Virus record (IMG/VR): IMGVR_UViG_3300030503_000287
Strand: one strand, 5' to 3'
DNA: 64,000 bases
From: a virus
The notes under the pieces are model-generated. The model had not been told where the DNA came from. It saw nothing but the letters and a program-made list of their open reading frames with translations, and ran no database searches. Made by a program: the position numbers and the translations under genes. This document shows positions 24,186 through 42,430 of the stretch, in pieces. Within the stretch, counting starts at the first letter, position 1. Every line of letters starts with the position of its first letter.

Positions 24186-24372
24186 CTTGAATTAATTCTC
24201 CAAATTGCTCATGAGCTAACTCTATTACTTCATCAATATCTATTTTATCCACCCTGTAAACTTCTACATACAAACCTAAACGCCCCCAAGAAGTGTCAAA
24301 ACATTCTTGCTCTGCCGCCATTACGAATGCTTCAGCATCAAATTTGAATTTGAACTTAAACCGGAGATCCAT
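24175..24372 (-). CDS. hypothetical protein
   Basis: 65-aa ORF between the polymerase and the MTase. Confidence 0.45.
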   Translation of the reverse strand: MDLRFKFKFKFDAEAFVMAAEQECFDTSWGRLGLYVEVYRVDKIDIDEVIELAHEQFGELIQDET

Positions 24373-27344: not shown

Positions 27345-27553
27345 TATATTTGTTCTTTACGCAATCTTTCAAATTCAGTTTCAATTGCTCCGCAGTCACA
27401 AAGAAATGTAGAATATTGCACTGACGAGCAACATGGATGATGTTCAAGTTCTGTTCCATAGGATTTCTGAATCTTCCAAGCGACATCACAACTTAGAAAA
27501 TCAAATCTTGTAACATCAATGAGATCTCTCATATTCCTTCTCTTTCCACCCAC
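27344..27553 (-). CDS. hypothetical Cys-containing protein
   Basis: 69-aa ORF in the array. Confidence 0.45.
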   Translation of the reverse strand: MGGKRRNMRDLIDVTRFDFLSCDVAWKIQKSYGTELEHHPCCSSVQYSTFLCDCGAIETEFERLRKEQI

Positions 27554-27710
27554 ATCTTCGAGCCAGTGTTTTTACAGGTTCGATATTGGTTGTGTCAACT
27601 TCTACACTGAGATTGTCCACAGAGCGTTTTGAACGAGTGCCAAGACGGTAATATTGGACATTACTATGGAATACTTTTGCTTCTTTTTCTGTTGTGAATT
27701 CAAAGATCAT
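27516..27710 (-). CDS. hypothetical protein
   Basis: 64-aa ORF in the array. Confidence 0.4.
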   Translation of the reverse strand: MIFEFTTEKEAKVFHSNVQYYRLGTRSKRSVDNLSVEVDTTNIEPVKTLARRCGWKEKEYERSH

Positions 27711-27988
27711 TGGTTACTTCTCCACTCTTCGAGATGTTTGTCCCACAGGATCTTGTTTAGTTCTTTTCGTGTCAATTTTAGCTTCTTCTCTATTATTGAC
27801 TGGTCTTCTGAAACAGGCAACAGATAATCTGTGCCTTTCTCAGTAAGTTGCCATCCTTTGTTTGCTGGGTAATGGACATACCCACCAGTCTTTAGTTCTT
27901 TGAGAATGGCAGAAATTTCTTTGTTTCCAACAGGAACCTTTCGCTCCTCTACCATTTTCAATATTGAAATTTCTTGCTCATTTAACAT
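27707..27988 (-). CDS. winged-helix-like small protein
   Basis: 93 aa. LKMVEERKVPVGNKEISAILKELKTGGYV resembles a wHTH. Confidence 0.45.
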   Translation of the reverse strand: MLNEQEISILKMVEERKVPVGNKEISAILKELKTGGYVHYPANKGWQLTEKGTDYLLPVSEDQSIIEKKLKLTRKELNKILWDKHLEEWRSNQ

Positions 27989-28020
27989 TTATATTGTCCC
28001 TTCTCATACATTATACCACA

Positions 28021-28049
28021 ATTTTTCATAATTTACTACTATATCCAAT
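28021..28049 (-). promoter_or_regulatory. extended -10 promoter
   Basis: Minus strand reads TAGTAA, 17 nt, TGgTATAAT upstream of ATG 27988. Confidence 0.45.
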
Positions 28050-28599
28050 CTATTCCAGGCTTCCCTTCATATCCTTTTTCCCATACGAACCATGCGAAAC
28101 AAAGAAGGCCGCTTTTAGCCTCAACTAACTCCCGGCCAAAACCTACCCTTTTTGAAAATACATGAACACTCTTCAATGGACTAGATTCCAAGAACGGCTT
28201 GCGCTTCTGTCCTTCAAGAAATGTGATACGAAGTAATAAAGCAACCTTTTTCTCAGCGACTTCCAAAGCTTTCTCAGCGAACGCTTGAGCATCGCAGTAC
28301 GGAGGGTTTGCGATTACATTATCTGTTTCATTTTCATGGTTTGTTAAAAAATCAAACTGCCAGGCATTACCCACTGGGTAATTACGATCTTCTATATCAC
28401 TTGCAAATACTACTCCATCTTTATGACGCTCTATAATAACATTTGTCATCCACCCATCACCACAACAAGGGTCCCAAATATCACCTTCAAATACTTCTTT
28501 ATCGAATAGTGAATGAGTGGCATGTGGTGGCGTTCTATAAAAGTCAGTGGAAGAGCGAACGCCAGCAGTCGTAACTCCCATCATTAATTGGTTTTTCAT
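28039..28599 (-). CDS. DNA N6-adenine methyltransferase
   Basis: IWDPCCGDGWM (motif I) and VIANPPY (motif IV). Confidence 0.75.
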   Translation of the reverse strand: MKNQLMMGVTTAGVRSSTDFYRTPPHATHSLFDKEVFEGDIWDPCCGDGWMTNVIIERHKDGVVFASDIEDRNYPVGNAWQFDFLTNHENETDNVIANPPYCDAQAFAEKALEVAEKKVALLLRITFLEGQKRKPFLESSPLKSVHVFSKRVGFGRELVEAKSGLLCFAWFVWEKGYEGKPGIDWI

Positions 28600-28835
28600 T
28601 ATTCTTCTGTATTTCTATCTTCCGAATTAGTTTCTACGTCGTTCACCAGAGCAGCCTTATCAGACCAATTCCAAGCCCTTGTGAAGCATTTAGAAAACCA
28701 GTAGCTGCCCATTACTGCTTGCATTTTTAACCATAAAAATTCATAACACCAATATTTGCCAGCGCGACAACCTTTAAATTTAGGTACTTTTCGCACCGGG
28801 CAAGAAAAATGAATGTAAAATATTGGTAAATTCAC
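28599..28835 (-). CDS. hypothetical protein
   Basis: 78-aa Trp/Cys-rich ORF. Confidence 0.4.
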   Translation of the reverse strand: MNLPIFYIHFSCPVRKVPKFKGCRAGKYWCYEFLWLKMQAVMGSYWFSKCFTRAWNWSDKAALVNDVETNSEDRNTEE

Positions 28836-29335
28836 CCTAACACTCCTAAATCAAAAGGTTTCTCTATCTCTGTGAGCAATGCATCAACCAGACTTATATC
28901 TAACGTCCAATCTACAGTTGATCGCTGGCGGTACTTACTACTTGCATAAGTAATGTATTGTTGTGCTTGTTTGTAAGTCCATCCGTTAACTTTTGCTATA
29001 TGTCGCAAGCAAACAGGAACCATTGTAGGTCCTTCAATCACATTTGTTCGACCGATATGGTAGCACTTATGGCACAATGGACATACTGCCATTAACCGTA
29101 CTAGTTTCTGAATACCATTACTTTCATAGCTGAATAATTCGTGACACTCTACTGGATGTTCTGGCCCTACACCGCCACAAATCTCACAAACGTAACACGC
29201 CTTTCGATAACAATACCGTCGTAATTTATCCCAAATCTCTTGATCTACATGATTTCTAACATTCTCATAGAAGCTAGTTTTTGGTATAAGATCGATCTTT
29301 AATTTAGGATTCTTAAATATGTTGTTTGATTTCAT
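28832..29335 (-). CDS. zinc-binding HNH-like protein
   Basis: CYVCEICGG ... ECHELFSY ... CPLCHKCYH motifs. Confidence 0.45.
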   Translation of the reverse strand: MKSNNIFKNPKLKIDLIPKTSFYENVRNHVDQEIWDKLRRYCYRKACYVCEICGGVGPEHPVECHELFSYESNGIQKLVRLMAVCPLCHKCYHIGRTNVIEGPTMVPVCLRHIAKVNGWTYKQAQQYITYASSKYRQRSTVDWTLDISLVDALLTEIEKPFDLGVLG

Positions 29336-32244
29336 GATTGCGGGACCTCAAACGGAGGTCTTTCTATATATTCACGTAACCAAACCGCAAAAGCCGACGT
29401 AATTTCAAAAGCGTCTTTTCTACCTCGTGCTATTTGAATTCCTCTATTTAGATATAGCTGTTGAAGCGTTCTCCGTGCAAACATCTCTTGAGTAGGAGCA
29501 AGGAGTGTGAATGTGCGCTCTACAAATTCGTCCATACGTAATAGTTCCGCAGCGAAATCACGACCCCTACCACCCATATCTTCTTCAAATATACGATTGA
29601 TTTCTTGTAGGTTTATAATATCCGTATGTTCCACCTTAGTTCTGGAGTAGGTATCATAACCCATGATTGGTTTGTCGTACCACATACGGAATAATTCCCC
29701 AGCGGCGTGTACATGTTCAGGGCGAACGATTATGCTCTCGCCATCTTCACTGGCGCTAAAACACTGTGCAGCGACTGATACACTTACCTTCGCTACTTTT
29801 GTTCTTTGATCGGATGGTTCAACTAATGGCACTGTGGGAGTATAGGTTTCACACATCCATTTAGATAAGGCTATTACAGCTTGTTCTGCTTCAGGAGTGA
29901 ATGTAATTTGATCTGATTGCCTCGAATATATCCATGCGATTAATTGTTGAGATATATCCCTACCATAAATCGGTACAGTAGGTGGAGTCATATCATTCAA
30001 ATCATCTACCGAAACATCCTGTTGAGCAACTGCCATAGCGAAATCAAAACGGGCTATATCTTCAGGTTGTGTCACCAAGCGAGGAACTACTTCTATTACG
30101 TTATATCCGAGTTGATGTATAAGTTTTCCGACTCCTGGGTTTGCAAGCCAAGTGCATCGTACTCGTGCTCGAAATTGGGCCGACGCAGCCTTAGAGATAC
30201 GTACTGTACCATCGCTTCTCGTGCTAGAAAGCAACTCAAGGAGTCCAACACGACCGAACTTAGCAGCGGTAAATTCGTCAAAGCAAATTGCTCTATTATC
30301 TTGCTGAGGCATAATTCCTGGTATGACATAACGTTCTCCTGACTGAGCAGATTGTTCTACTGCACCTAAAATACCTGCTGGAGTTTGATGTTTACAGTCA
30401 ACAAACATACCAACTCCGAAATGTTCGGCCATCTTTTTATAAGATTGTGATTTTCCCGTGCGAGTATCTCCAACTACTAATATTTCTAACCAGCCATGAT
30501 CTACAATATTCCCAAGAAATGTAAAATGTAAAGCAGAGTGCCAGATAGTGCGATAGGCAAGATGAAGATCGAGGCGTTTTCTGATAAGGGTAGTACTATC
30601 AATCAAATCCTGAGCTACAGATTTTAATTTCATTATTACTGTTTCGTGACTAGTTGGTTTAAATACACACAAATCCTTATAGATGTCTGGAGTCATAATG
30701 AAAGAATCGATACCGACCGACATTGGTCTGGCCACATCTAGCATGGCTACAAGTTGTTGGTTCTGAGGGCGCGGGTAGACAAAACCTTCTACATCATATT
30801 GCATATTCTCTTCAAGTTTCCCGGTACGAGAAGGAATAATATAGACTTCATATCTATGACGATCTGTGGCTGTAATTTCACTGTCTAACGGCGCTGAGAG
30901 AATGGCTGGCTCGATATCGATAGCGTTTAGAATTTGAATTGTTACGTCCGGGCATTGTTTCGGTATTCCCTGAGCTTCTAACAACGCACGATGTTGTATG
31001 TCGTCGTGAACGCCAATTTGTTTTAAAGCATCGCTGGACCGAGGGTCAATATTGAATATGCCGTGACCACGAAAACTATCTCGCATAGGACAAAGAGTGC
31101 AATAACCATGCCCACGTGCAGGGCAATTCGCTTCGTAACTAGCAGCAATGGCATACGTTTTTTCAGAACGAGCATTGAGCCTAGCACGATACCCAACCCT
31201 ATGTCCAATATTGTTACTAGACATAGAATCGCCGTAATTAACAACCACAGGTTCAGTATCATAGGTGTCATTAAGTGTGGGGGCATCTTCTGCACTGTTG
31301 AGAATATTAACGATAGAATCACAGACGCCAGCCGTTTGGAACCCAAGACTGTACAAATAATAAATGTAGTCGGAAACGTCTGCATTACCTGGCCGATCTT
31401 CCCACTGAGGAAGTGTGCAAATATGTAATGATGCTACGTCTCTGTGTAAGCGCCGAGTGGATTCTTCTATAAAATGTTGACCAGCCGCGTCTGCATCGCC
31501 AAGAATATAGATATGTTTATTACGATACCAATTGCCTTCTGGAATTGGTGAACTGGAACCATCGGTTCCTGTAACAGCAGCAAATCCTAATGCCCTAAGT
31601 GATAAAGCATCAGGCTCCCCCTCAACCAGCAACAATGTCTGTTCGTTATATCCATCTATGGGGAAAAGGACGTTTGCGTGTAACCCCGTAACGTACCACA
31701 CCCATTTTGGGCGACCGCCAGGACGATACATTTTACAGTTAATAATTCGTCCCAGCGCATCAAATATTGGGAAAACATAACGGTCGTATTCGGCATCATA
31801 ACCAATTCTGTATCTGGCAATGACTTCTCTGGTCCAAGGTTTTGTTTCTTGTAGCCTTGTTATAAGTTGCGGATGGGCTTCTAGATAATTTTCCTTCTCC
31901 GCAATATAGAGTTCTGTGACAGGATTGACAACGTTGTGTTCAATCATTAGAGCATGTTCTGTCACTCTAAAATTAGGGACTGCCCTGCCACGCTCGTCAA
32001 ATTCCGTAGCTCTCATGATAGCTACAAACTGAACATAGTTTCCTGAGCGATCACAGTTCATACATCGCCAAAGACCGTTTGTTACATTAAATGCGAATGA
32101 AGGATTGTTATCATGTTCGTCTGGAAAAGGGGACCTTGCAGCCCTTTCTCCTCTAGAATTCGGCGCAGCTAGACCAGGTATCCATCTCTCATAAAGTTCT
32201 TCCCATCCTATTCGTTCCAGCGTTGTGCGTAATTGAGGATTCAT
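29332..32244 (-). CDS. primase-helicase fusion (Zn finger + TOPRIM + P-loop ATPase)
   Basis: 970 aa. WRCMNCDRSGNYVQF zinc finger. TOPRIM LLLVEGEPDALSL and ILGDADAAGQ. Walker A VVGDTRTGKSQ and Walker B ICFDEF. Confidence 0.8.
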   Translation of the reverse strand: MNPQLRTTLERIGWEELYERWIPGLAAPNSRGERAARSPFPDEHDNNPSFAFNVTNGLWRCMNCDRSGNYVQFVAIMRATEFDERGRAVPNFRVTEHALMIEHNVVNPVTELYIAEKENYLEAHPQLITRLQETKPWTREVIARYRIGYDAEYDRYVFPIFDALGRIINCKMYRPGGRPKWVWYVTGLHANVLFPIDGYNEQTLLLVEGEPDALSLRALGFAAVTGTDGSSSPIPEGNWYRNKHIYILGDADAAGQHFIEESTRRLHRDVASLHICTLPQWEDRPGNADVSDYIYYLYSLGFQTAGVCDSIVNILNSAEDAPTLNDTYDTEPVVVNYGDSMSSNNIGHRVGYRARLNARSEKTYAIAASYEANCPARGHGYCTLCPMRDSFRGHGIFNIDPRSSDALKQIGVHDDIQHRALLEAQGIPKQCPDVTIQILNAIDIEPAILSAPLDSEITATDRHRYEVYIIPSRTGKLEENMQYDVEGFVYPRPQNQQLVAMLDVARPMSVGIDSFIMTPDIYKDLCVFKPTSHETVIMKLKSVAQDLIDSTTLIRKRLDLHLAYRTIWHSALHFTFLGNIVDHGWLEILVVGDTRTGKSQSYKKMAEHFGVGMFVDCKHQTPAGILGAVEQSAQSGERYVIPGIMPQQDNRAICFDEFTAAKFGRVGLLELLSSTRSDGTVRISKAASAQFRARVRCTWLANPGVGKLIHQLGYNVIEVVPRLVTQPEDIARFDFAMAVAQQDVSVDDLNDMTPPTVPIYGRDISQQLIAWIYSRQSDQITFTPEAEQAVIALSKWMCETYTPTVPLVEPSDQRTKVAKVSVSVAAQCFSASEDGESIIVRPEHVHAAGELFRMWYDKPIMGYDTYSRTKVEHTDIINLQEINRIFEEDMGGRGRDFAAELLRMDEFVERTFTLLAPTQEMFARRTLQQLYLNRGIQIARGRKDAFEITSAFAVWLREYIERPPFEVPQS

Positions 32245-32279
32245 TATGATTGCTTAATAATTCAGAGATGAAAAGAAGT

Positions 32280-32311
32280 ACCCTCAGTGTTACAGAAGTA
32301 ACACTGAGGGT
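32280..32311 (-). terminator. strong hairpin, probable intrinsic terminator
   Basis: Perfect 14-bp stem accctcagtgttac / gtaacactgagggt with a 4-nt loop. U-rich tract follows on the minus strand. Lies between the 32359 gene and the primase gene. Confidence 0.6.
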
Positions 32312-32358
32312 TTGGTTCTCGGCTTTAGTTCCTTTTCAGAACTCACTTACCGAGAGAG

Positions 32359-33117
32359 TTAAGAAAGGCCAGGAGTGTCTTTGCCGGGTTCGTATCCGCC
32401 AGCAACCTTATTGGTTACTTTTTCGTTCCATTCGTCGTGCTTGATCTTGAAACGAACGATTGAACCGTTAAAGTCTTTCGCGGATGTACCAATGAACTTT
32501 GCGCCATCTTCACTCAGAAGTTCACTGGCCCGTGCTATTGACTTGAACTTCCAGATACCGCCTTCTTTGAACGATGCTTGATCGTAAAGTACCGATCCAA
32601 CATAACTAGTAGGGAATGTAACTTTCAGTTTGAAAGAAAGCATCTTGCCATCACCAGCCTTGTTAGGTTTGATTTCAGCATCTTCAATGGACGCCTCATA
32701 ATCGAGATTTACATCAAGAAGTCGGCCACCTTCACTGATACCACTCAAATCAAGAGCAGTTAGGTCAAGATCACCATCAGAACTCGTAAGAGACTGGAGT
32801 GCAGCATCAATCCCTGTAGCGTCAGGAGTTGGCATGGAAGGAGCCTGTACAACACCTTGTGGTGCTACTGGCTGTACTGGAGGCTGGTAAGCCAATGCCG
32901 GAGGTGTAAGTGGCATAGGAGGCGCATACTGTGGAACTGGAGGAGCATACGCAGGAACTCCACCATCGAAGGGAGGTCCTTGTGGTGCTACTGGCTGTAT
33001 CGGAGGAGCAACGGGAGCAACTGGCGCTGCAGCTACCGGCTGCTGCGCATAGGGAAGAGCGGAAGGGGCTGGTGGTGGTGCCGATGAATTGGCTCCAGCT
33101 TGATTAAGTCGAGGCAT
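32359..33117 (-). CDS. proline-rich protein, possible ssDNA-binding protein
   Basis: 252 aa. Pro/Ala/Val-rich N-terminal 100 aa, then a beta-rich domain. Sits between the Sak4-like ATPase and the primase, where phage SSBs often occur. Confidence 0.4.
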   Translation of the reverse strand: MPRLNQAGANSSAPPPAPSALPYAQQPVAAAPVAPVAPPIQPVAPQGPPFDGGVPAYAPPVPQYAPPMPLTPPALAYQPPVQPVAPQGVVQAPSMPTPDATGIDAALQSLTSSDGDLDLTALDLSGISEGGRLLDVNLDYEASIEDAEIKPNKAGDGKMLSFKLKVTFPTSYVGSVLYDQASFKEGGIWKFKSIARASELLSEDGAKFIGTSAKDFNGSIVRFKIKHDEWNEKVTNKVAGGYEPGKDTPGLS

Positions 33118-33120
33118 CTT

Positions 33121-33882
33121 TTATATTCCTTGTGTCTGTGTGGATCGTTTGATCCCAGCCATCATCTTATCGATGATGTTATCGATGTATGGCGGTTCGT
33201 ATTTCTCAAGTGCGACAAACCTGTCTTTTCCATGAGTAACCGCGTCACGGTGGCATATAAGCCATCGTTCTGTTTGCCACTGAAGCGAATTGTCTTCCAA
33301 CTTTACCTGACGCTCTGGCATACAATATCTGGCAATCAAACTGAAATGTCTACCGTATTGTTCTTTGAACGCGCCTTGAAAAGCTGGTTGCCACATAGTT
33401 CGCTTAGTGTCGGTGTCCTCCCTAAACGTCTCATGAGCCGTAAAGAGAACATGTTTTCCTGAGTGTCTGAATTGTGTAGTGATATTGTTCATGCTTGTGA
33501 GGACAATCCCCCACTCCCGTTGGGAAGGAACTTGTATCTTTCCACGTTCACAGATCTCTCGGAGTATCATTCCTTGCAGTTCTGTTACTGTATCTACAAC
33601 GATCATGTCAAACTCTGATTTGTGAATGTTCCACCAAGCGATAGCGGTATTGTATTCTGCTATTGTCTGGACAGTCCAAACCTTACAAAGATCACGTCGC
33701 AAACCATATTTAACAGCCCATGCATTTGCTGAAACTGCTCCATCGTCAATGTCGATAAGTAAAGTTCTGTATTTCTGACTAGAACCTACAAGAACTGTCT
33801 TACCAACTCCGGTGCCACCGTAGATTATTCCTACAACCGAGGTGTCACTTATATTTTCTAGAGAAATTGGCCCATTGGCCAT
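33121..33882 (-). CDS. Sak4-like / AAA_24-type recombination ATPase
   Basis: Walker A GIIYGGTGVGKTV and Walker B MIVVDTVTEL. AAGGAGG RBS. Confidence 0.65.
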   Translation of the reverse strand: MANGPISLENISDTSVVGIIYGGTGVGKTVLVGSSQKYRTLLIDIDDGAVSANAWAVKYGLRRDLCKVWTVQTIAEYNTAIAWWNIHKSEFDMIVVDTVTELQGMILREICERGKIQVPSQREWGIVLTSMNNITTQFRHSGKHVLFTAHETFREDTDTKRTMWQPAFQGAFKEQYGRHFSLIARYCMPERQVKLEDNSLQWQTERWLICHRDAVTHGKDRFVALEKYEPPYIDNIIDKMMAGIKRSTQTQGI

Positions 33883-33938
33883 CCACTACCTCCTTGGGTA
33901 TTGTGGTTTCGAAGGCAGTCTTTGACTGCCAACGCTTT

Positions 33939-33967
33939 AGTATATGCTACAAAAATCTAGTTGTCAA
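33939..33967 (-). promoter_or_regulatory. sigma70-consensus promoter
   Basis: Minus strand reads TTGACA, 17 nt, TATACT. A 7-bp hairpin (33914-33930) lies in the leader before the RBS. Confidence 0.65.
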
Positions 33968-33999
33968 GCATGGATTTTTGTTTGTATTTACACCGTACA

Positions 34000-34212
34000 T
34001 TAACTGTCAACAACGTCTTTTTCTCTAAGCCCTACAGTTAGAGAAATGCCTAATTGGCATACAAAGCAGTAACCCGTAAAGGCGAGAGTCTCCCCAAAAT
34101 CACGACTATCATTTAAATTCAACCATATTGAATTGTCACACCCAGGACATTGTTCAGATATGGTTGGAAGGGTTAGTCTTTTGGGCATTTTTAATTCAGG
34201 CATCAGTTCCAC
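34000..34212 (-). CDS. zinc-ribbon protein
   Basis: 70 aa with CPGC ... CFVC. Confidence 0.45.
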   Translation of the reverse strand: MELMPELKMPKRLTLPTISEQCPGCDNSIWLNLNDSRDFGETLAFTGYCFVCQLGISLTVGLREKDVVDS

Positions 34213-34540
34213 TTTCTGTTGATATTAAAAATACTTGATTTTCGAATGCTCCATTTTTGACACGTTTTGTAGTAGCTGCGGCAGCTATTTCATGAAAACC
34301 AAAAGTTGCTTTCATTAAGGCATGTAAAACAGTATACATATCTACCAACTCTTCAATAGTGTGATGCTCAGCGAATTCATTAGTCTCTTCAATCAATTTT
34401 GTGATAAGACAATCTACAAACTCTCTTCGCTCCAGAGTACGAGTTCTACAGGTATTGCCATTTTGTTTTATAATATCAGGAATATTATCTCGAACAAGTT
34501 TGTTGTGAATTGTTGTTGTTTTAGACATTCTGGGTCTCAT
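34196..34540 (-). CDS. MazG/HisE-like nucleoside triphosphate pyrophosphohydrolase
   Basis: KLVRDNIPDII ... LIEETNEFAE ... EELVDMYTVLHAL. Confidence 0.6.
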   Translation of the reverse strand: MRPRMSKTTTIHNKLVRDNIPDIIKQNGNTCRTRTLERREFVDCLITKLIEETNEFAEHHTIEELVDMYTVLHALMKATFGFHEIAAAATTKRVKNGAFENQVFLISTESGTDA

Positions 34541-36440
34541 ATATTGAATCTAGATGTGCCAACACCACCTTTATATCCCATGGATTGATTGTTGATGGCA
34601 TAGTCTTAGAACATTCATTTGGGTATCTTTTACGGTTCTGGCCCCAACCTGTGAAGTTACCACTTTTACTTTCACGATTCTTCAAAGCAATAGCTTGATG
34701 TTCAGTTGGTGAGGCATGAGGGGGGTTGTTTGCCAATAACCCATCATTTAACCCTAAATCCTTTTCATAACTTCGCGAACCATCGTGACCGAGAACTGAG
34801 ACTCTGGCACATCGGCCAGCAGAGACAGATATGAGAGATTCTAATGAACGCAATTCATATCCCCATTCATCAGTGAGGATTCCGCAGTACATCATAGTCT
34901 CAACTTCTTCGTCACTGATATAAGGTAAGTGCCAGTTATGAGTTTCTATTTTCTTTGGAATCGATTCATCATATGCTTCCATTGCAAGAAAAGAAGGTAG
35001 TTGTATTTCAGGTTGAGCCAATTCATGACATCGCAGCGTAAAATAATTCTGCCAATCTGTGGCAGTCGCAATTATGGTTTGCCATGCAAATGGCTCTATA
35101 AGACGATTTGCAATGGACTTGTGGACGTTCAAATCTTTTGATAGGTAATTTGCAGCAAGCACCATTTGATCTCTGGCGTTTAACCATGCTCTAATTGCTA
35201 AACGTTCATCTTCAACACTTAATGGTTCTCCACCCTGCATACCTTTTTTGTTAGTCGCCCACACAAGAGGGATAAAAGGAGTTTCCATTACCTGTTTAAT
35301 TTTACGTTCAACAGGAATAGCACGACTGGATGCACTGTTCCTACTATTATGAACTACAATACCATTCGCGAAAAAGTTTGGAAATTCTCCGGCAATTTCA
35401 AGATCATATGTGTCTTCAACTCCACGATAATTGATTGAATCAACTGTTATGAAGTCAACATAATATTCAAATCCTGTTTGCCAACCTTGAACTTCGTGCT
35501 CTTTTCTATGGCAACCTTCACAAAGTAGGGTAACATTGTTTTTGTCGGCTACCAAATCAGGTCGTAAATAACGTGGTTGAATATGATGAATGCGCAGTTG
35601 ATCAACAGATCCACATTTCTGACAACAACCCATTTCAGCTATAAGTTGAAGCTTGGCTTTTCTGTTCCACATAATATAACTATGTTGTTCTGCTCTTGTA
35701 AAACGATGAAGTTTTTCTGTTTCTGGTTTTCCCAATCGTCGCACGGCTATTCTGGTAGTGCCTGGAATAATATTCTCGATTGTAACATAACCAGTATCTG
35801 TCCAAATTTTATGATCTTTACTTCCGGCTATTTGGTGTCTTCCGGCCTTTACTTCAAAAATTTCTTTACGACCTGAATAGAAACAATCAACAACAGTTGA
35901 ATATTGTATTTTGTTTGTATGTTCATTGATCTGTCGGATCGTCATGTCTTTGAGTCGATATTGAATTGGTTGGTTATTAACTCGTGGACGCTCGTAAAAC
36001 TTCTTAAAATCAGACCCCAACACCAGCCATTGCCGACCATCCAATTCTTTCACGGCTTTTAACAAACCAGATCTACAAGATCCATTTAGTCCAGAATAAT
36101 TGCTGAACCCAAATATGTTTTTGAGTTCCATTGTAGTATAAACACTATTATCATCCAATAACGACATATCGAGTATTTTATGGTTTTTTGACGGTCTTGG
36201 CTGTGCTCCTTCAGTCCATTTACGATAGAAATTCTCGATTGAGATAGGATACTTGGTGGCACTACTTTCACGTTTTTGCGCTCTTGGGCTACTGAATTCT
36301 AATATAGAATCTCCAGCGAGACAAAGAGATCTGTGTGTGTTAAATTCACATAATACAATACGAGGTATTACGAATTCAAAGGTAGTGATCCGTGCTCCTG
36401 CTGATGATATAGAATCCCTGATTATTTTTGCTGAATACAT
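34521..36440 (-). CDS. thyX: flavin-dependent thymidylate synthase (ThyX-like) interrupted by an intein
   Basis: Exteins join to EFNTHRSL|SRNSASSRAIPVERK (ThyX RHR...S....S.R motif). The C-terminal half is collinear with ThyX. Confidence 0.8.
   Translation of the reverse strand: MYSAKIIRDSISSAGARITTFEFVIPRIVLCEFNTHRSLCLAGDSILEFSSPRAQKRESSATKYPISIENFYRKWTEGAQPRPSKNHKILDMSLLDDNSVYTTMELKNIFGFSNYSGLNGSCRSGLLKAVKELDGRQWLVLGSDFKKFYERPRVNNQPIQYRLKDMTIRQINEHTNKIQYSTVVDCFYSGRKEIFEVKAGRHQIAGSKDHKIWTDTGYVTIENIIPGTTRIAVRRLGKPETEKLHRFTRAEQHSYIMWNRKAKLQLIAEMGCCQKCGSVDQLRIHHIQPRYLRPDLVADKNNVTLLCEGCHRKEHEVQGWQTGFEYYVDFITVDSINYRGVEDTYDLEIAGEFPNFFANGIVVHNSRNSASSRAIPVERKIKQVMETPFIPLVWATNKKGMQGGEPLSVEDERLAIRAWLNARDQMVLAANYLSKDLNVHKSIANRLIEPFAWQTIIATATDWQNYFTLRCHELAQPEIQLPSFLAMEAYDESIPKKIETHNWHLPYISDEEVETMMYCGILTDEWGYELRSLESLISVSAGRCARVSVLGHDGSRSYEKDLGLNDGLLANNPPHASPTEHQAIALKNRESKSGNFTGWGQNRKRYPNECSKTMPSTINPWDIKVVLAHLDSIYETQNV
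35346..36323 (-). mobile_element. intein with HNH homing-endonuclease domain (326 aa)
   Basis: Starts CLAGDSILEF. Internal CCQKCGSVDQLRIHHIQ ... NNVTLLCEGCHRKEH. Ends TYDLEIAGEFPNFFANGIVVHN with +1 Ser. Confidence 0.8.
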
Positions 36441-36462
36441 ATACGTACTTTCTTATAAAATT

Positions 36463-36550
36463 TGGACCGCAACCAAGGATTCGAACCTGGATCAAACCCC
36501 AATCTCCTTCACCATACGCGCGTACAGTGAGACCAACTGTGCTTGAACTA
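36463..36550 (-). ncRNA. tRNA-like 3' fragment (T-arm and acceptor-CCA mimic)
   Basis: Minus strand ends ...CCAGGUUCGAAUCCUUGGUUGCGGUCCA. The T-stem carries a mismatch or bulge. I could find no convincing 5' acceptor partner or anticodon arm. Confidence 0.3.
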
Positions 36551-36693
36551 CGACTACCGGAATCGCACCCCATTAACCATTATGGGTATTACGGTCACAT
36601 TGTGTTTAAAATTTCAGGCCGTCGTTCCCAAATACTCTATCACCCCGAAAGGAGACAGCCGCTAAAGCAGTATCCAAGCTATATCCCGAAATT

Positions 36694-37055
36694 TGGTGGA
36701 GGCGGGGAGAGTCGAACTCCCGTCTTCAGTACCCATATCTCAATATATCCTACAAGCATAGTTCGTATTTATAATGTTAGATTTTCTACGAACAAACCAT
36801 CTAACAAGTTTGAATCTATTTTCCTAGCATCCAAGATTCTGAGTGATGCTTAATCAAAGAAACGTAAGGTTTCAATCCCCACTACTTCCGAAGAAGTAGT
36901 GCAATCAGACTTAGGCGGCTGCAGCGAAAGCGACAGGGCGAACGGTCTTAAAGGTTGTGTTTGCGTTTGTTTTTAGGTCGGATTCGTATACTGGCCAACG
37001 ACCATCCAGTGCTTGCTTATTGAGTATCCTGATCTGAATCGATACCTATCGCCCC
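36694..37055 (-). ncRNA. ssrA: tmRNA (one-piece)
   Basis: 5' GGGGGCG pairs with 3' CGCCUCC-A-CCA, including G3:U70. T-arm GGGAG-UUCGACU-CUCCC. Tag ORF from GCA 36964 encodes ANTTFKTVRPVAFAAAA-TAA. Confidence 0.9.
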
Positions 37056-37064
37056 CGTATCTTT

Positions 37065-37358
37065 TTACCGTTCTATCAACTTCTTTATACTCTCAATATT
37101 TGGACCGGTAAGAGAATAAATATTTTTTGAGCCAGTGCGTTCACAATCGACAAGTTTGGCCTGTTTGAGAATACGCAAGTGACCAGAAACAGCGCCTTGC
37201 GCCATATCGAGTGAAGTAGTTATATCATTAACAGACTTTGAATTTTCTGATAATAGAGCTACGATACGAAGCCTTACCGGATGTGCAAGTGCAGAACATA
37301 TGTCTGCAAGATAATTTATTGTCTGATTGTCCATGTTTATTACCCTATATCTTTTCAA
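37065..37358 (-). CDS. ArsR-family transcriptional regulator
   Basis: LADICSALAHPVRLRIVALL ... AVSGHLRILKQAKLV wHTH signature. Confidence 0.75.
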   Translation of the reverse strand: MKRYRVINMDNQTINYLADICSALAHPVRLRIVALLSENSKSVNDITTSLDMAQGAVSGHLRILKQAKLVDCERTGSKNIYSLTGPNIESIKKLIER

Positions 37359-37548
37359 AATCTACATACTGATGAATTTCGTGAGTTGGTTTTGCCCAGG
37401 TTGCCGTAAATATTTCTTTGGCCCCAGATTCGAATTGAACTATAGCTTGTGTAAGGTTTCTGGTAACTATTAATTCTGTCACAATTCCATCGCCATAAAC
37501 ACTAACATGAACTCGTAGGCCAACTCGCACCTCCGCAACTTTCAACAT
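37345..37548 (-). CDS. hypothetical protein
   Basis: 67-aa ORF upstream of the ArsR gene. Confidence 0.45.
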   Translation of the reverse strand: MLKVAEVRVGLRVHVSVYGDGIVTELIVTRNLTQAIVQFESGAKEIFTATWAKPTHEIHQYVDFEKI

Positions 37549-37569
37549 AATTTTATCCTAATAAAATAT

Positions 37570-37655
37570 TGGTGCCAAAGACGAGACTTGAACTCGTAAG
37601 ACCTTTTGGGTCGGAAGGGTTTGAGCCCTCTGTGTTTACATTTCACCACTCTGGC
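37570..37655 (-). tRNA. tRNA-Leu (CAA), class II
   Basis: 86 nt. Acceptor GCCAGAG/CUUUGGC. Anticodon arm GAGGG-CUCAAAC-CCUUC. Variable-arm hairpin GACC-CAAAA-GGUC. T-arm ACGAG-UUCAAGU-CUCGU. CCA encoded. The D-loop lacks GG. Confidence 0.75.
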
Positions 37656-37780
37656 GTTAAATCTTACCCAAAAGAGAAATAGGGTGGAAAAGTTTATAAA
37701 TCTTGGACCAATTCCTATTTCTCTCCCGGTTCGCTGCAGCAAGGGAGATTTTATTTTTAGGTTACACCCTAATTAACCTA

Positions 37781-37856
37781 TGGTGTCAGCGGTAGGAATC
37801 GAACCTACGATTACCTGATTTTGTCAAGATGTCCTATCCAATTAGACTACACTGGC
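37781..37856 (-). tRNA. tRNA-like gene with non-canonical anticodon loop (ACAAAAU)
   Basis: 76-nt cloverleaf with CCA. T-arm GUAGG-UUCGAUU-CCUAC and a GG-containing D-loop. The anticodon loop has A32, C33 and A34-A36, with a U:U pair at the top of the stem. Confidence 0.55.
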
Positions 37857-37981
37857 ATAAAATGGCTGTCTATTCCAGCCTGTCAACGACCTGTTATCAT
37901 TATTGCGGCTATATTCGGTCGCTGAACATAACCGCTATTAACTCCATACCGTCTTATAGTTCAACATTTTAAAACCTCATT

Positions 37982-38058
37982 TGGCGGGCTGTGTTGGTTT
38001 CGAACCAACTTCTGCCGGTTTTGGAGACCGGAATGCTAACCCCATGCACCAACTACCC
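37982..38058 (-). tRNA. tRNA-Trp (CCA)
   Basis: 77 nt. Anticodon arm CCGGU-CUCCAAA-ACCGG. T-arm GUUGG-UUCGAAA-CCAAC. Discriminator G and CCA encoded. One A:A mismatch in the acceptor stem. Confidence 0.85.
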
Positions 38059-38195
38059 ACAATTCTATATTTTTAAATTCCTAAGCTGTTCGATCCAACA
38101 TTTAACTCTTTCCAATGAAGAGCACTTAGGAAGTTTCCGGGTCATGGCAAAGAGGTTCCCGGTTAGGTGCCTCTTCGCTCTCCGAAATTTTTTCT

Positions 38196-38263
38196 ATGGA
38201 ACGAAAGGAATCGAACCTTCACTACCTGCATGCTGGGTGTGCTCCCAACTACACTACACCCCA
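38196..38263 (-). ncRNA. degenerate tRNA-like gene with truncated anticodon arm
   Basis: 68 nt. Acceptor UGGGGUG/CGUUCCA (three G:U pairs). D-arm GUGU-AGUUGGGA-GCAC. T-arm GAAGG-UUCGAUU-CCUUU. Only 17 nt (CCCAGCAUGCAGGUAGU) where the anticodon arm plus variable loop should be. Confidence 0.4.
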
Positions 38264-38266
38264 TAG

Positions 38267-38731
38267 AAATTGTTTCCTCTGATATACATACCGGATTGTC
38301 TGCGCAGAGGTTTTCACCATGCTTTGTTTTAGTAAAACCGGTCTACAACTAAAACCTGTTCTATCAGAGAAATCCTCAAATCTTACAGGGTGCCGAATTC
38401 TTAATCCCAACACCCTGTTCTGTGTTTCGCTGTCACCAGCACACATATCTTCAAATCTGAGGGCTGCCAACCTATTCTCATTCTTTACAACGCTTTTCGC
38501 GTGACTCACTATGAGTCGGAAACAGGAACCATTACGGCAGCGCCAGTTCTGTTGCGCTCGATGTCACCGCAGCTCACGAGTCTTACCTGTTCCCACAGAC
38601 AACATATAGAGCTACTGGTAAGCGCCCAGTCGGCAAACATAAACGCTCACCAGTAGTTATTGCGCTTCATTAGAATGAAGCTAGCTATCTATGTCTTGGA
38701 AAAGAGGCTTTTCAAGCATAGACAACATATT
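38267..38731 (-). ncRNA. candidate structured non-coding RNA, class unknown
   Basis: About 465 nt without a convincing ORF, inside the tRNA island. Several 6-13-bp helices. Two helices need G:U pairs that exist only in the minus-strand transcript. Confidence 0.4.
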
Positions 38732-38887
38732 TTAGTGTGTTTTGAACAATAACGGAACAACAATCATTATTGCTAAAATTAACACAATCCAACCAAAAGT
38801 TCTTAAACCGTATATAAATTCTTCATAACGCCATGCATCACCCCAATTATCATCATCAGCTGGTTCTTCTTCAAACTCACTGACCAT
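38732..38887 (-). CDS. small tail-anchored membrane protein (51 aa)
   Basis: ATG 38887 overlaps the end of the upstream gene. MVSEFEEEPADDDNWGDAWRYEEFIYGLRTFGWIVLILAIMIVVPLLFKTH. Below the ORF-track cutoff. Confidence 0.45.
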   Translation of the reverse strand: MVSEFEEEPADDDNWGDAWRYEEFIYGLRTFGWIVLILAIMIVVPLLFKTH

Positions 38888-39083
38888 CTTGTTTACTCTT
38901 TTTAGCGCGCCGATTTATATGCCCAATACTTGTAGCGGCCTTTGCTTCAGCGCTCGTAAAGGAATGAGCTACACCAAGTTTATGAGCAGTTACTCCACCC
39001 ATAGCTGCTATTTCCTTACGTCGTTCAGGAGACATTGCAGCAAGACCGCGTTTCTTTTTAACTTCTGTTATTTCTATTGCCAT
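38877..39083 (-). CDS. KGG-repeat (YciG-like) stress-protein homologue
   Basis: RGLAAMSPERRKEIAAMGGVTAHKLGVAHSFTSAEAKAA resembles general stress protein repeats. Confidence 0.55.
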   Translation of the reverse strand: MAIEITEVKKKRGLAAMSPERRKEIAAMGGVTAHKLGVAHSFTSAEAKAATSIGHINRRAKKSKQDGQ

Positions 39084-39104
39084 TTTTTAATCCTAAAATT
39101 TCGA

Positions 39105-39140
39105 GCAGAGGGCGAATCCCGTCAGAAAAACTCCCTCTGC
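39105..39140. other. 8-bp GC-rich hairpin with 20-nt loop
   Basis: gcagaggg ... ccctctgc, followed by TTTT on the plus strand and by UCGAAAUUUU on the minus strand. Terminator or processing site. Confidence 0.3.
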
Positions 39141-39193
39141 TTTTGATCTACCAGCACCAACTGGTTTACTTCTAAAACTACCATCGTGTAATC

Positions 39194-39300
39194 CAGGAAG
39201 CTCAGGAATCGAACCTGAAGTGTTAGTCATCAAACCTCGATCAGCGAGCAGAATTGAACTGCCTTATCTTTCTACATGGTGATGTAACGATGCTAGTTAC
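39194..39300 (-). ncRNA. tRNA-like element(s) that do not fold into one cloverleaf
   Basis: Perfect T-arm UCAGG-UUCGAUU-CCUGA (39202-39218). A second arm GGCAG-UUCAAUU-CUGCU. A 5-bp/7-nt hairpin GUAAC-UAGCAUC-GUUAC. No matching 5' acceptor strand found. Confidence 0.3.
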
Positions 39301-39551
39301 CTCGTCTCGAAGTATTAAGAAGATTTACGTTATCTCTTAACAGTGTCGTCGTCCAGGCTCAATTACTTACTTCTTTAACCATGTATTTCTTTACTGGCTC
39401 AGTTTTCCGGTGTTACCCATATCCCCATACTGATTTAATGCACCGACGGGCACCGACTACAACCATCTCTCTTCTCTTATGTATCTATTATACACCTTCT
39501 CATCAAGAATTGCAAGTCTTTTTGAACAAATTTGAGAAAAAATGTCAAAAA

Positions 39552-39734
39552 TTATCTTGTACACCACGAATCGAGACCGGGAACGAAAATTCTACTTTCC
39601 TTACCACAAACAGAACACACCCAAATATGAAGACCAGGTTCTAACTTTATCATATTGGGAGGGTTGTGTTCTCGACTCTGACATATGTATAGCTCTTTTG
39701 GCTTTTCACTTTCTTTCAATGATCTGAATGGCAT
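39552..39734 (-). CDS. zinc-ribbon protein
   Basis: 60 aa with Cys18 and CSVC. Confidence 0.45.
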   Translation of the reverse strand: MPFRSLKESEKPKELYICQSREHNPPNMIKLEPGLHIWVCSVCGKESRIFVPGLDSWCTR

Positions 39735-39736
39735 TT

Positions 39737-40078
39737 TTATTCCTTTCCTGCGTTCAACATTTCTTCGAGTATGTTTTTATTAACTACATAATTATGAGCT
39801 TTGATTGAACAAAGAGTAGTTGTGATATTGTTATAAGATAAGGCCAAACTCTCCATCGCTTGAAGAGCTTCTTTTTTAGCCTTATTAGCTCTGTATCTAT
39901 ATGGTCGTAGAAGATAGTCTAAATATGACTTCTTTTGATAAGAGACGTTCATAAGACGTGACTTCTCTTCGTAGGTGTGATTGTTATATGAGGGATATCT
40001 CAGCCATTCCTTATAAGCCGCGTCACATTCTCTTCTGGCGGCAGCTACTTCTTCAATTGTCGGAAGTACATAAGTCAT
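39737..40078 (-). CDS. hypothetical protein
   Basis: 113-aa ORF in the array. Confidence 0.5.
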   Translation of the reverse strand: MTYVLPTIEEVAAARRECDAAYKEWLRYPSYNNHTYEEKSRLMNVSYQKKSYLDYLLRPYRYRANKAKKEALQAMESLALSYNNITTTLCSIKAHNYVVNKNILEEMLNAGKE

Positions 40079-40403
40079 TCATTTTCTCCACTAAATATTT
40101 CTCACAAGATCTGCTATTACTGCGACACAGTTCCATACCTTCTATTTCATAGGCTACGTTATCTTCGACACGTACAAGTACAAGCCAGGGCTTGACATAT
40201 ATCTGACAACCTATCCCAGCGAAGCACGACCCACTATTCTTCTTCCATATCTGATATATTCCATTTTCATGACGTTTAAATATCTTACCTGAATAGTCCA
40301 CTCCTGTTGTGGTTATTACACCATCCCATTCTCGAAAAGGTTGTCTACCTTGCTGACTTGCAAATATTTTATCGTTAAACATTTTTATCCTTATCATTTC
40401 CAT
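40053..40403 (-). CDS. hypothetical protein
   Basis: 116-aa ORF in the array. Confidence 0.5.
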   Translation of the reverse strand: MEMIRIKMFNDKIFASQQGRQPFREWDGVITTTGVDYSGKIFKRHENGIYQIWKKNSGSCFAGIGCQIYVKPWLVLVRVEDNVAYEIEGMELCRSNSRSCEKYLVEKMNDLCTSDN

Positions 40404-40561
40404 TCATGGCGTATCCAATAATCCCCAATAGAGTTATGATCATGCGCTACATAAAATGCTTGTTCACATTTACAGTTCAGGCATTGTCTGATAGTTGGTT
40501 TACCTACTGCATCGAACTTAATATAGTGCCAAGAGTGTCCAAATATACAGAGCCAACTCAT
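40394..40561 (-). CDS. small Cys/His protein (55 aa)
   Basis: ATGA coupling with the upstream stop. MSWLCIFGHSWHYIKFDAVGKPTIRQCLNCKCEQAFYVAHDHNSIGDYWIRHEWK. Below the ORF-track cutoff. Confidence 0.5.
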   Translation of the reverse strand: MSWLCIFGHSWHYIKFDAVGKPTIRQCLNCKCEQAFYVAHDHNSIGDYWIRHEWK

Positions 40562-40767
40562 TTTATACTATCCTTATCACGAGCAGTTATGATATCTGTT
40601 ATCAACTGTTGATGTTGCTTCTTCAACTCTTCAATTTCATGAAAAGTCTTGATTTCGTCTTCAATGATTTTCTTCCAGTCTTTAAATCGTTTGCGATCAA
40701 ACAGTATGTAATTAACTAAAGCAACCAACAAACCTGATGCGAAACCAATCACAAATGCATTATCCAC
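40558..40767 (-). CDS. small membrane protein
   Basis: 69 aa. N-terminal hydrophobic helix, then a charged helix. Confidence 0.5.
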   Translation of the reverse strand: MDNAFVIGFASGLLVALVNYILFDRKRFKDWKKIIEDEIKTFHEIEELKKQHQQLITDIITARDKDSIK

Positions 40768-42430
40768 CGTACACTCCTACCGTATCTGGACTCAATCGAG
40801 TCGCCAAGTCTTCATGTGCTGAAAGCGCATCATAGATTTTTTCATCAATAGTATTACGCGCAATTAGATCAATATAATGTACAGGTTGCTCCCTCCCTAT
40901 TCTGTGACTTCTATCCTGCGACTGAGAGCGCAACAAATAGCGCCAGGAGTTTGAGTGGTAGATATGGAAATCTCCGGTTTGAAGATTAGCCCCAAATGCC
41001 ATCTTCTGTATCTGCATAGTCATTATTTGTAAACCACTACTACGGTCCAGAAACTGTTTTTTGTATTCATCTCTAGTATCGTCTTTCGTACTCCCAGTAA
41101 TAGCTACAGTACCTACTATTTCATTGAGTTCGCGCTGAAGTCTGTAAACCTCATGGTTGTATCTACACCAAATTAATACCTTAATACTTGAATCACCACG
41201 AAGTCTTTCAATAGCAAAATTGCGTATCCAGTCAATCTTGTAGGAATCAAGTTCTGTAAGTACAGGTTCGGGTTGTGCCATATCTTCCCATATAGGAGCA
41301 TGACCACCAGCAATTTGATGTAACCGGAGCCATATAATTCCTTCACCGGCCAGACTTAACTCATTCCCCAGCGCAGACTCACCTTCTACCTTTACTCGTT
41401 CGTATAACTCACGGACGCTGGGAGGAAGGTCTAATCGTACTACTTCAAATGTCTGAGGCGGCAAACCAAGACATGTGGCTTTTGTAGCCCTATACCACTT
41501 AGGGCCGAGACGTGTAATAAGTCCGACAGGATCTATACATCCAACAGGTTTTAAGATAGTTTTATTGCTTAGAATTCGCTGGGGAACCATGTTTGCATAG
41601 CGATGTAAAAATTCATCATATGTCTCAGTAATATTCTCTGGGTCCACTATTTTCATCTGAGAATAAAGATTGCCTACGTTCTGGCTCATTGAAGTACCAG
41701 TTAGTTCAATCCGAATTCGTGGTGGACGAGCCAGTAAATGTGCAGCACGTGTCACTCTTGCGGACGTATTGAATAGATACCATGATTCATCAAAAGCCAC
41801 TACTTGAGGATCAAATCGTTCTAAGTATGGCCCCATCTTGGCGACTACTTCATAGTTGACAAAGACGATACCTTCCGTTGCTCGCTCCAACATTTTAATT
41901 CTAGTAGCAACAGGCTTGTTGATCGCAAGATTAGTAATATTAAGGTCATAGTTCTGTAATCGACCAATTTCCGCAATCCATTCCCCAGCGAGAGAACGAG
42001 GTAGTACCACCAATATGCGCTGTGCATTCCATACTTTGAAGAGAACTAGGGTAGATCTTGTCTTACCCGTACCCTGTTGTGATCCATTGAACTGGGATGT
42101 ATCGAGAGCAGCTAATGAACAAGATTCAAGTTGGTGAGGGAGAAGGTTCGCACCTAAGTAATCACTCCATTGCTTCACATATTCGACAGTATGAGGATCT
42201 CCTTGCATGAGACTGGAACGTACCTGCCTGTAAGCTGGTGTAGCATCATCTGGAATTGCAATAGATTCAGCAGCAAGTAATAATATACGGCTTGGTTTAA
42301 ATATCACAAATGGCGCATAAAAAGGACCTCCGCTCCGAGAATCCGAAATTTTACGGAGGTCTTTCAGTATCTTTTCATCGCCATGTGCTATCACGACATC
42401 AAGGCTTTGGTTGTAGTCTAAGGTATACAA
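40760..42430 (-). CDS. SNF2-family helicase
   Basis: GSQQGTGKTRS (motif I), VAFDESWYLFN (motif II), QSQDRSHRIGR (motif VI). Confidence 0.85.
   Translation of the reverse strand: MYTLDYNQSLDVVIAHGDEKILKDLRKISDSRSGGPFYAPFVIFKPSRILLLAAESIAIPDDATPAYRQVRSSLMQGDPHTVEYVKQWSDYLGANLLPHQLESCSLAALDTSQFNGSQQGTGKTRSTLVLFKVWNAQRILVVLPRSLAGEWIAEIGRLQNYDLNITNLAINKPVATRIKMLERATEGIVFVNYEVVAKMGPYLERFDPQVVAFDESWYLFNTSARVTRAAHLLARPPRIRIELTGTSMSQNVGNLYSQMKIVDPENITETYDEFLHRYANMVPQRILSNKTILKPVGCIDPVGLITRLGPKWYRATKATCLGLPPQTFEVVRLDLPPSVRELYERVKVEGESALGNELSLAGEGIIWLRLHQIAGGHAPIWEDMAQPEPVLTELDSYKIDWIRNFAIERLRGDSSIKVLIWCRYNHEVYRLQRELNEIVGTVAITGSTKDDTRDEYKKQFLDRSSGLQIMTMQIQKMAFGANLQTGDFHIYHSNSWRYLLRSQSQDRSHRIGREQPVHYIDLIARNTIDEKIYDALSAHEDLATRLSPDTVGVYGG

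Follow-up and report, generated by a model that had tools for sequence, protein, structure and literature searches.

Genes for transfer-messenger RNA (tmRNA) have been known in phages since the first genomes of Bxz1-type mycobacteriophages, and they have been described in eight mycobacteriophages of the Bxz1 group and in Bacillus phage G; mycobacteriophage DS6A encodes an RNA that consists only of the tRNA-like domain (TLD) (PMC4131195). Further phage tmRNAs, among them those of Streptomyces BE1 phages, appear in two other reports (PMC5764925, PMC8928761). Of 18,146 phage genomes surveyed, 402 (2.3%) carried a tmRNA, with 133 unique tmRNAs of which 53 were two-piece molecules, and it has been proposed that phage tmRNAs maintain hijacked translation (PMC9004378). 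Huge phages carry a tmRNA together with SmpB (PMC7162821). Here, we have analysed a stretch of 64,000 nucleotides from the IMG/VR virus record IMGVR_UViG_3300030503_000287 (the whole stretch is called the window hereafter), in which an earlier note, made from the sequence alone, had pointed to a phage-encoded one-piece tmRNA with its own degradation tag, adding that such genes occur in a minority of phages, as the survey figures bear out. We have found that the minus strand of the window contains, at 36694-37056, a complete one-piece tmRNA (ssrA) gene of 363 nt, whose product would probably work in ribosome rescue during infection.

As far as identity alone is concerned, it is practically beyond doubt that this is a genuine, structurally intact tmRNA of the standard one-piece type. 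An Rfam scan of the whole window matched the standard bacterial model RF00023 to 36694-37056 on the minus strand with 109.7 bits (E-value 5.7e-42; the gathering score of the model is 47), and model positions 1-374 of 374 were covered without truncation. ARAGORN called a single tmRNA in the window, unpermuted and over the same interval, so that the two programs that the earlier note had named as checks both call a tmRNA, with a score above the gathering threshold. The one-piece character holds as well, because the RNA matches the standard RF00023 and not a permuted model; permuted two-piece tmRNA (RF04321, RF01849-51) was rejected on the unpermuted ARAGORN call and because RF00023 was the best model of its clan. 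The sole correction to the listed details concerns the end of the gene, which had been placed at 37055: GGGGGCG begins with the G at 37056 (the window position is 37057 minus the tmRNA nucleotide number). At the Rfam gathering thresholds no riboswitch was found in the window.

The tRNA-like part of the molecule is complete. The 5' strand of the acceptor stem, GGGGGCG (nt 1-7; 37050-37056, minus strand), forms seven of seven pairs with nt 353-359, and the partner of G3 is the U at nt 357, which gives the G3:U70 alanine identity pair as the third pair of the acceptor; this G-U pair is a determinant for alanyl-tRNA synthetase (AlaRS) (PMC3985003). The 3' end (nt 336-363; 36694-36721, minus strand) is made up of the T-arm GGGAG-UUCGACU-CUCCC (nt 336-352, 5/5 pairs with a UUCGA-type loop), the acceptor 3' strand CGCCUCC, the discriminator A and an encoded CCA. 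All these elements of the acceptor and the T-arm, which the earlier note had listed, can be read directly from the strand. The connector helix H2 has its 5' strands, UUCAG, CUCAAUA and CAAGCA, in nt 19-47 (37010-37038, minus strand), and they pair in full with nt 328-332 (5/5), nt 312-318 (7/7) and nt 299-304 (6/6), respectively; H2 is also present in the minimum free energy (MFE) fold.

The mRNA-like part is equally well defined. Just upstream of the resume codon lies pseudoknot 1 (PK1, nt 47-81; 36976-37010, minus strand), with stems S1 ACUGG/CCAGU and S2 GGUCG/CGACC of 5+5 Watson-Crick pairs. Helix H5 (nt 134-157; 36900-36923, minus strand), UGCAG/UUGCA, has 5/5 pairs where Rfam also places a stem, and the stop codon of the tag lies within its loop. 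Further downstream we found PK3 (nt 207-245; 36812-36850, minus strand), with S1 AGCAUC/GAUGCU and S2 GAAUCU/AGAUUC (6+6 Watson-Crick pairs), and PK4 (nt 252-296; 36761-36805, minus strand), with S1 GUUAGAU/AUCUAAC and S2 GUUCGUA/UACGAAC (7+7 Watson-Crick pairs). The PK2 position is occupied by a 9-bp hairpin, CACUACUUC-UUCG-GAAGUAGUG (nt 156-177; 36880-36901, minus strand; 9/9 pairs), and it is in this region that the Rfam alignment is weakest; when stems were enumerated there in search of a pseudoknot, only weak, G-U-rich candidates came out and they were discarded. Outside H5, the 61 helix pairs that were checked are Watson-Crick throughout, with the functional G3:U70 as the sole exception. 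When each pseudoknot window was shuffled 5000 times, a pseudoknot of at least the observed quality arose in 20 shuffles for PK1, in one for PK3 and in none for PK4; these counts, together with the E-value of the covariance model, exclude a chance origin. The RNA therefore folds as a tmRNA, as the earlier note had proposed, with the TLD, H2, PK1, PK3 and PK4 all paired, and only with regard to PK2, which is a plain hairpin, was the word canonical slightly too strong. In sequence and structure the RNA is equipped with everything that a functional tmRNA requires.

The tag reading frame (nt 93-146; 36911-36964, minus strand) goes from the resume codon GCA at 36964-36962 to the stop TAA at 36913-36911, the positions expected from the earlier note and on which the sequence and ARAGORN agree. 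It is intact, it has 17 codons and it encodes ANTTFKTVRPVAFAAAA*. The bases that precede the resume codon are ...AAAAACAAAC, with an A at -4, the counterpart of A86 of the Escherichia coli tmRNA, a base important for frame setting. The RNA thus has a tag of its own, one to which ARAGORN gives the label 'Tag not identified'; the modal length of tmRNA tags is 10 amino acids (PMC11915505), compared with 17 here. The determinant of tags conserved for ClpXP and ClpAP is ALAA (PMC3985003). On this point the claim that the tag ends in a motif recognised by proteases is only partly borne out, because the C-terminus is indeed hydrophobic and Ala-rich but it reads AFAAAA instead of the conserved ALAA, so that the terminal Ala-Ala is kept and an Ala stands at the usual Leu position. 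Such an Ala-rich C-terminus would probably still act as a degradation signal, a role that has to be stated conditionally because the last four residues are AAAA and not ALAA.

We have also looked for this tail elsewhere. A degenerate scan of IMG/VR found AFAAAA* on six other phage tmRNAs, five permuted and one standard (L006, L038, L041, L053, L066 and L089), with body sequences unrelated to the tmRNA described here; a tblastn search of their flanking genes with all the open reading frames (ORFs) of the window gave no matches. Among the standard bacterial tmRNAs of 185,579 GTDB species, only two carried AFAAAA* at the spacing tested, one in a Clostridia and the other in a Thermoanaerobaculia metagenome-assembled genome (L115 and L116). 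A phage-specific convergence on the AFAAAA tail is possible, but its enrichment in phages is a lead and not a result because the two scans are not equivalent, that of IMG/VR being unanchored and that of GTDB being anchored, restricted to standard tmRNAs with a spacing of 205-235 nt and exclusive of permuted genes. The tail was also tried as a pointer to the host and set aside: the Clostridia and Thermoanaerobaculia tmRNAs are only 46% and 43% identical to that of the phage, which marks the common ending as convergent and no guide to the host. A likeness to the tags of cyanobacteria was also considered, but it found no confirmation in the literature and was dropped.

When compared with the systems described so far, the RNA has the same order of elements as the standard bacterial tmRNA (SsrA, RF00023), that is, the 5' half of the TLD, H2, PK1, the resume codon and tag ORF, H5, the pseudoknots, H2, the T-arm, the acceptor and the CCA, and it shares G3:U70 and the discriminator A with it, in a length of 363 nt. 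It departs from the bacterial molecule in being phage-encoded, in the UUCG-capped hairpin at PK2, in the 17-amino-acid tag that ends in AFAAAA and in the D-loop analogue, which is GGUAUCGA here and GGAUUCGA in the RF00023 consensus. Like the one-piece tmRNAs of cultured phages (the Bxz1 group, Bacillus phage G, Streptomyces BE1 phages and Stenotrophomonas phage Marzo), it is a complete tmRNA in a large genome with tRNA genes; in contrast to them, the tRNAs in the window are few and not dozens, and a blastn search in distant mode against the 50,697 phage records of INPHARED gave no match. With the permuted two-piece tmRNAs of phages (Melnitz, pelagimyophages, RF04321) it shares the phage location and a proposed role in sustaining hijacked translation, and several permuted IMG/VR tmRNAs have the same 3' 28-mer, and some the AFAAAA tail; unlike these, it is unpermuted, and its body sequence and flanking genes are unrelated to theirs. 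The RNA of DS6A is also a phage-encoded domain resembling tRNA-Ala, but it lacks a tag frame and pseudoknots and inhibits tmRNA, whereas the present RNA has a full mRNA-like domain; a TLD-only RNA of that type was rejected because the gene possesses a tag frame as well as PK1, PK3 and PK4. Finally, the 3' fragments of ssrA that temperate phages and genomic islands carry at attP are likewise ssrA-derived sequences in mobile elements, but they are partial and adjacent to an integrase, and here the gene is full-length and lies in the replication module. The gene is therefore a new addition, orphan in sequence, to the known phage-borne tmRNAs, and its particular traits (the PK2 hairpin, the GGUAUCGA D-loop analogue, the long tag ending in AAAA, the insertable tRNA block and the poorly sampled family) are variations within the known range.

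Searches for sequence relatives brought up no homologue of this RNA. The 3' 28-mer of the tmRNA was present in 11 IMG/VR contigs, where it belonged to unrelated standard tmRNAs, to permuted tmRNAs or, in one case, to a tRNA-Ala; a pattern for the 5' TLD found two further unrelated tmRNAs in IMG/VR, and an internal 19-mer found nothing there. The back-translated N-terminus of the tag had one match in IMG/VR, which was discarded as due to chance since there is no tmRNA at that place. A scan of JGI metagenomes anchored on both TLD halves returned the identical copy only. The six full-length standard tmRNAs that were retrieved are 43-49% identical to the phage RNA, and the 265-nt tmRNA of L016 is 56% identical over the part that can be aligned. 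Two of the contigs that carry the 28-mer deserve mention in their own right. One of them (L004, 5463-5536) encodes a phage tRNA-Ala(UGC) with the same 28 nt at its 3' end, which illustrates how closely the TLD mimics tRNA-Ala; in the other (L011) an RT-2 RNA (RF03077, 176.7 bits) is encoded at 4372-4596, some 4 kb away from a standard tmRNA.

The assignment of the gene to a phage, already made in the earlier note, is supported by the phage genes at both sides and by three further assemblies (L001, L002 and L120, from ENA, Logan and JGI), which repeat the tmRNA and the flanking sequence with 100% identity. The ENA contig with the identical tmRNA is 97,505 bp long and all 3,083 bp of the JGI contig, tmRNA included, match the window. 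Contigs of 97.5-97.8 kb that carry the proteins of this uncultured tailed phage were found in at least 24 assemblies. On mapping, the window extends 9.9 kb beyond the end of the ENA contig, so the assemblies start at different points, and this suggests that the genome, of about 97.6 kb, is complete and circular or permuted. The window contains structural and lysis genes (for a tape measure protein, for tail proteins bearing lectin-type domains and for a GH108/PG_binding_3 endolysin), replication genes (for a PHP-domain polymerase of the DnaE type, a primase fused to MCM, a PD-(D/E)XK nuclease and an SNF2 helicase) and genes of nucleotide metabolism (for a dCMP deaminase and for a thymidylate synthase that an HNH intein interrupts), and the tmRNA is located in the middle of the replication module, beside a tRNA cluster. 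The best matches of the endolysin are in phages of Variovorax, Pseudanabaena, Rhizobium, Sphingomonas and Agrobacterium (32-39% identity); these matches and the type of the enzyme would indicate a diderm host, with no finer assignment, and the best matches of the SNF2 helicase and the polymerase were uninformative about the host.

Neither Pfam scans, nor a PHROG scan limited to the ten largest ORFs, nor precomputed annotations gave a match to the SmpB family; together they cover window-equivalent positions -4.1 to 73.5 kb, about 77 kb of the ~97.6-kb genome, and it is because of this that we assume a dependence on the SmpB of the host. Beyond the end of the window, at about 6 kb, a LexA-like repressor with LexA_DNA_bind and Peptidase_S24 domains (L118, 3203-3781) is encoded beside a point of divergent transcription, and the phage may be temperate on this account. 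Near this gene there are also a pentapeptide-repeat/Amidoligase_2 protein and a GGACT-family protein.

A block of about 6.9 kb (33883-40759, minus strand) separates the AAA_24 gene from the SNF2 helicase gene, and it is here that the tmRNA is found, together with the thymidylate synthase gene with its HNH intein, an ArsR gene, tRNAs and small ORFs. The thymidylate synthase gene (phrog_85, with an HNH-endonuclease intein) occupies 34521-36440 on the minus strand, directly downstream of the tmRNA. On the other side, an ArsR-family helix-turn-helix gene (37065-37358, minus strand; Pfam HTH_5, 2.7e-13), annotated as an 89-amino-acid gene in L001, ends on the same strand with a stop codon only 8 nt ahead of the tmRNA, and the two are likely to be co-transcribed. 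Further upstream there is a cluster identified by ARAGORN and Rfam (37570-38263, minus strand), with tRNA-Leu(CAA), an aberrant 'Phe-AAA', tRNA-Trp(CCA) and a tRNA-like gene; in all, the window has three canonical tRNAs and two aberrant tRNA-like genes. The Phe(AAA) gene called by ARAGORN at 37781-37856 (minus strand) has an anticodon loop, ACAAAAU, devoid of U33, and Rfam aligns a 5-nt loop there; it may encode a non-canonical or decoy tRNA. The tRNA-like gene at 38196-38263 (minus strand) was detected by Rfam only (37.2 bits) and missed by ARAGORN; it has an anticodon arm of about 13 nt and no encoded CCA, and it may be degenerate or have a non-decoding role.

The block is a particularity of this lineage. 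A collection of 5.8 billion proteins contains 16 homologues of the primase/MCM protein, 32-49% identical to it, and for five of these (P0002, P0007, P0008, P0009 and P0012) we compared the loci (L106-L112). The gene order SNF2, AAA_24, MCM-primase, DnaE, PD-(D/E)XK is kept in L106, L107, L108, L110 and L111; L109, a second locus of P0009, keeps it only up to MCM-primase, and L112 is a contig of 3.9 kb with little besides the primase gene. In L106, L107, L109, L110 and L111 the SNF2 gene either abuts the AAA_24 gene or has a single small ORF between itself and the latter, and in L108 small ORFs stand between the two genes, compared with 6.9 kb in the window; it follows that the tmRNA belongs to a lineage-specific insertion. 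No tmRNA is present in the compared loci L106-L112, and their sole tRNA is one in L107, elsewhere in the locus. As homologues of the primase with 41-49% identity keep the SNF2, AAA_24, MCM, DnaE order with neither tmRNA nor tRNA cluster at that place, the tmRNA appears to have been acquired as part of the block. It would have arrived, then, within a mobile unit of translation and nucleotide-metabolism genes that related phages lack. The family to which this region belongs (window 24372-42430 and L106-L112) is sparsely sampled, spans 38-62% G+C and has no cultured relative; the polymerase of the window shares no more than 31% identity with the enzymes of Streptomyces phages, and a search for phage relatives through the primase in IMG/VR gave none.

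Taking all this together, we favour the reading that the phage tmRNA rescues ribosomes with the help of three host factors, AlaRS, SmpB and EF-Tu, and adds a tag specific to the phage, and as a whole we consider it likely. The gene would be transcribed from the minus strand jointly with the upstream tRNA and ArsR genes, and the transcript would be processed by RNase P, charged with alanine by the host AlaRS and delivered to stalled ribosomes by host SmpB and EF-Tu. Ribosomes stalled on truncated mRNAs, presumably plentiful during infection, would thereby be freed, with ANTTFKTVRPVAFAAAA appended, and the host tmRNA would be supplemented or partly replaced, sustaining translation capacity for phage proteins. 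This role agrees with those put forward for phage tmRNAs (PMC9004378, PMC7162821), and the earlier suggestion that a phage-supplied tag redirects or sustains trans-translation in infection is plausible.

Several observations weigh against such a role. Expression, alanine charging and tagging are steps predicted from the sequence, and the scans for promoters and terminators gave counts that equal the expectation from shuffles, none of them distinctive. No diverged homologue came up in INPHARED, IMG/VR, the JGI metagenomes or a limited GTDB scan, and because all the other copies are 100% identical they provide no evidence of covariation or purifying selection. The SmpB negative spans about 80% of the genome, the remaining ~20 kb presumably containing the head and packaging genes. 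The tail of the tag, ...PVAFAAAA, departs from the conserved determinant, and the PK2 site has its capped hairpin and no pseudoknot. The latter we regard as a minor variant and not as a failure of the fold, because the pseudoknot region varies between lineages and PK2-PK4 are dispensable in vitro (PMC3985003). Lastly, the MFE of the whole RNA is no better than that of shuffled sequences (z = -0.76), a value that is uninformative because the calculation considers nested folds only and this RNA is rich in pseudoknots.

Another explanation is that the tmRNA reprograms trans-translation, either because its non-canonical tag alters the fate of rescued polypeptides, by escape from ClpXP/SspB or through another protease, or because the RNA outcompetes the host tmRNA for SmpB against defence-induced stalling. 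The length of the tag, its not being recognised by ARAGORN and its AFAAAA ending, shared with six otherwise unrelated IMG/VR tmRNAs and with only two standard bacterial ones, would fit this possibility, as would the fact that no phage SmpB was seen, so that the phage and host RNAs must share that of the host. The odd anticodon arms of the neighbouring tRNA-like genes also recall the proposal that phage tRNAs evade host nucleases (PMC10264068). We consider this explanation unlikely, since the tails of phages and of bacteria were not surveyed on an equal footing and the C-terminal Ala-Ala is kept, so ClpX recognition may be normal. Its more elaborate form, a device in which the long tag without ALAA diverts products from ClpXP/SspB or the RNA outcompetes for SmpB and which, together with the unusual tRNA-like genes, would counter ribosome-stalling defences, seems to us quite unlikely. 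That the gene could be a neutral passenger, recently captured with tRNAs and the thymidylate synthase in a mobile block and contributing nothing to fitness, is suggested by the lack of the block in every syntenic relative sampled, by the selfish HNH intein and the two apparently degenerate tRNA-like genes that it carries and by the missing evidence of conservation. But the gene has no sign of decay, its checked helices outside H5 being Watson-Crick except for G3:U70, its frame intact and its CCA present, and no donor could be detected in the collections searched, so that it was not freshly copied from any of the host genes sampled; for these reasons we find a passenger decidedly unlikely.

An inhibitory function would bring the RNA close to that of DS6A, a TLD molecule reported to inhibit tmRNA in E. 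coli (PMC4131195, PMC11915505), and by titrating SmpB it would act against host trans-translation; the absence of SmpB from the ~77 kb annotated is in keeping with this. Yet PK1, the resume codon, the open tag frame and its stop have all been retained, a full mRNA-like domain that an inhibitor does not need, which makes this function very improbable. As for the possibility that the gene does not belong to the phage at all, and is instead a host ssrA at the border of a prophage, a remnant of attP or the product of a chimeric assembly, temperate elements often integrate into ssrA (PMC4383910), and the LexA-like S24 repressor means that the phage may be temperate. Nevertheless, the gene is full-length and lies mid replication module with no integrase nearby; host contamination and chimeric assembly were rejected because phage genes lie on both sides and the junctions are identical in the three further assemblies, and an attP 3' fragment was rejected because the full model (1-374) is matched and no integrase family was found among the ORFs neighbouring the tmRNA. 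We give this possibility next to no weight. Ribosome rescue with a phage-specific tag is thus the reading that we keep.

Phage tmRNAs have been catalogued for two decades and this gene leaves the knowledge of trans-translation unchanged. In the literature that we found, which records genes or proposes roles, there was no experimental test of a phage tmRNA. The present gene is an unusually clean example, compact and one-piece, with perfect helices, apparently no smpB and a non-ALAA tag, and because of these features it is a reasonable candidate for heterologous tests of phage tags as degradation signals. It also shows a tmRNA that travels with tRNAs in an insertable block, in a phage family that has been poorly sampled and whose polymerase is of the DnaE type.

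Some other features of the window were noticed during the analysis. An ORF with a Hint domain, associated with homing endonucleases, is located at 12447-13643 on the plus strand, between the tail-fibre-like genes and the GH108 endolysin. At 53985-54344, inside an ORF of unassigned protein function (53921-54718, minus strand), there is a 48-bp tandem repeat with 7.5 copies and 95% identity, which encodes repeats of the AESARSAESARLAAWS type and gives rise to spurious ORFs in five frames. Finally, between 58000 and 62000 the G+C content falls to 0.31-0.33 and the GC skew is reversed, and the segment, which includes an HNH endonuclease gene (58045-58722), is probably foreign or mobile.

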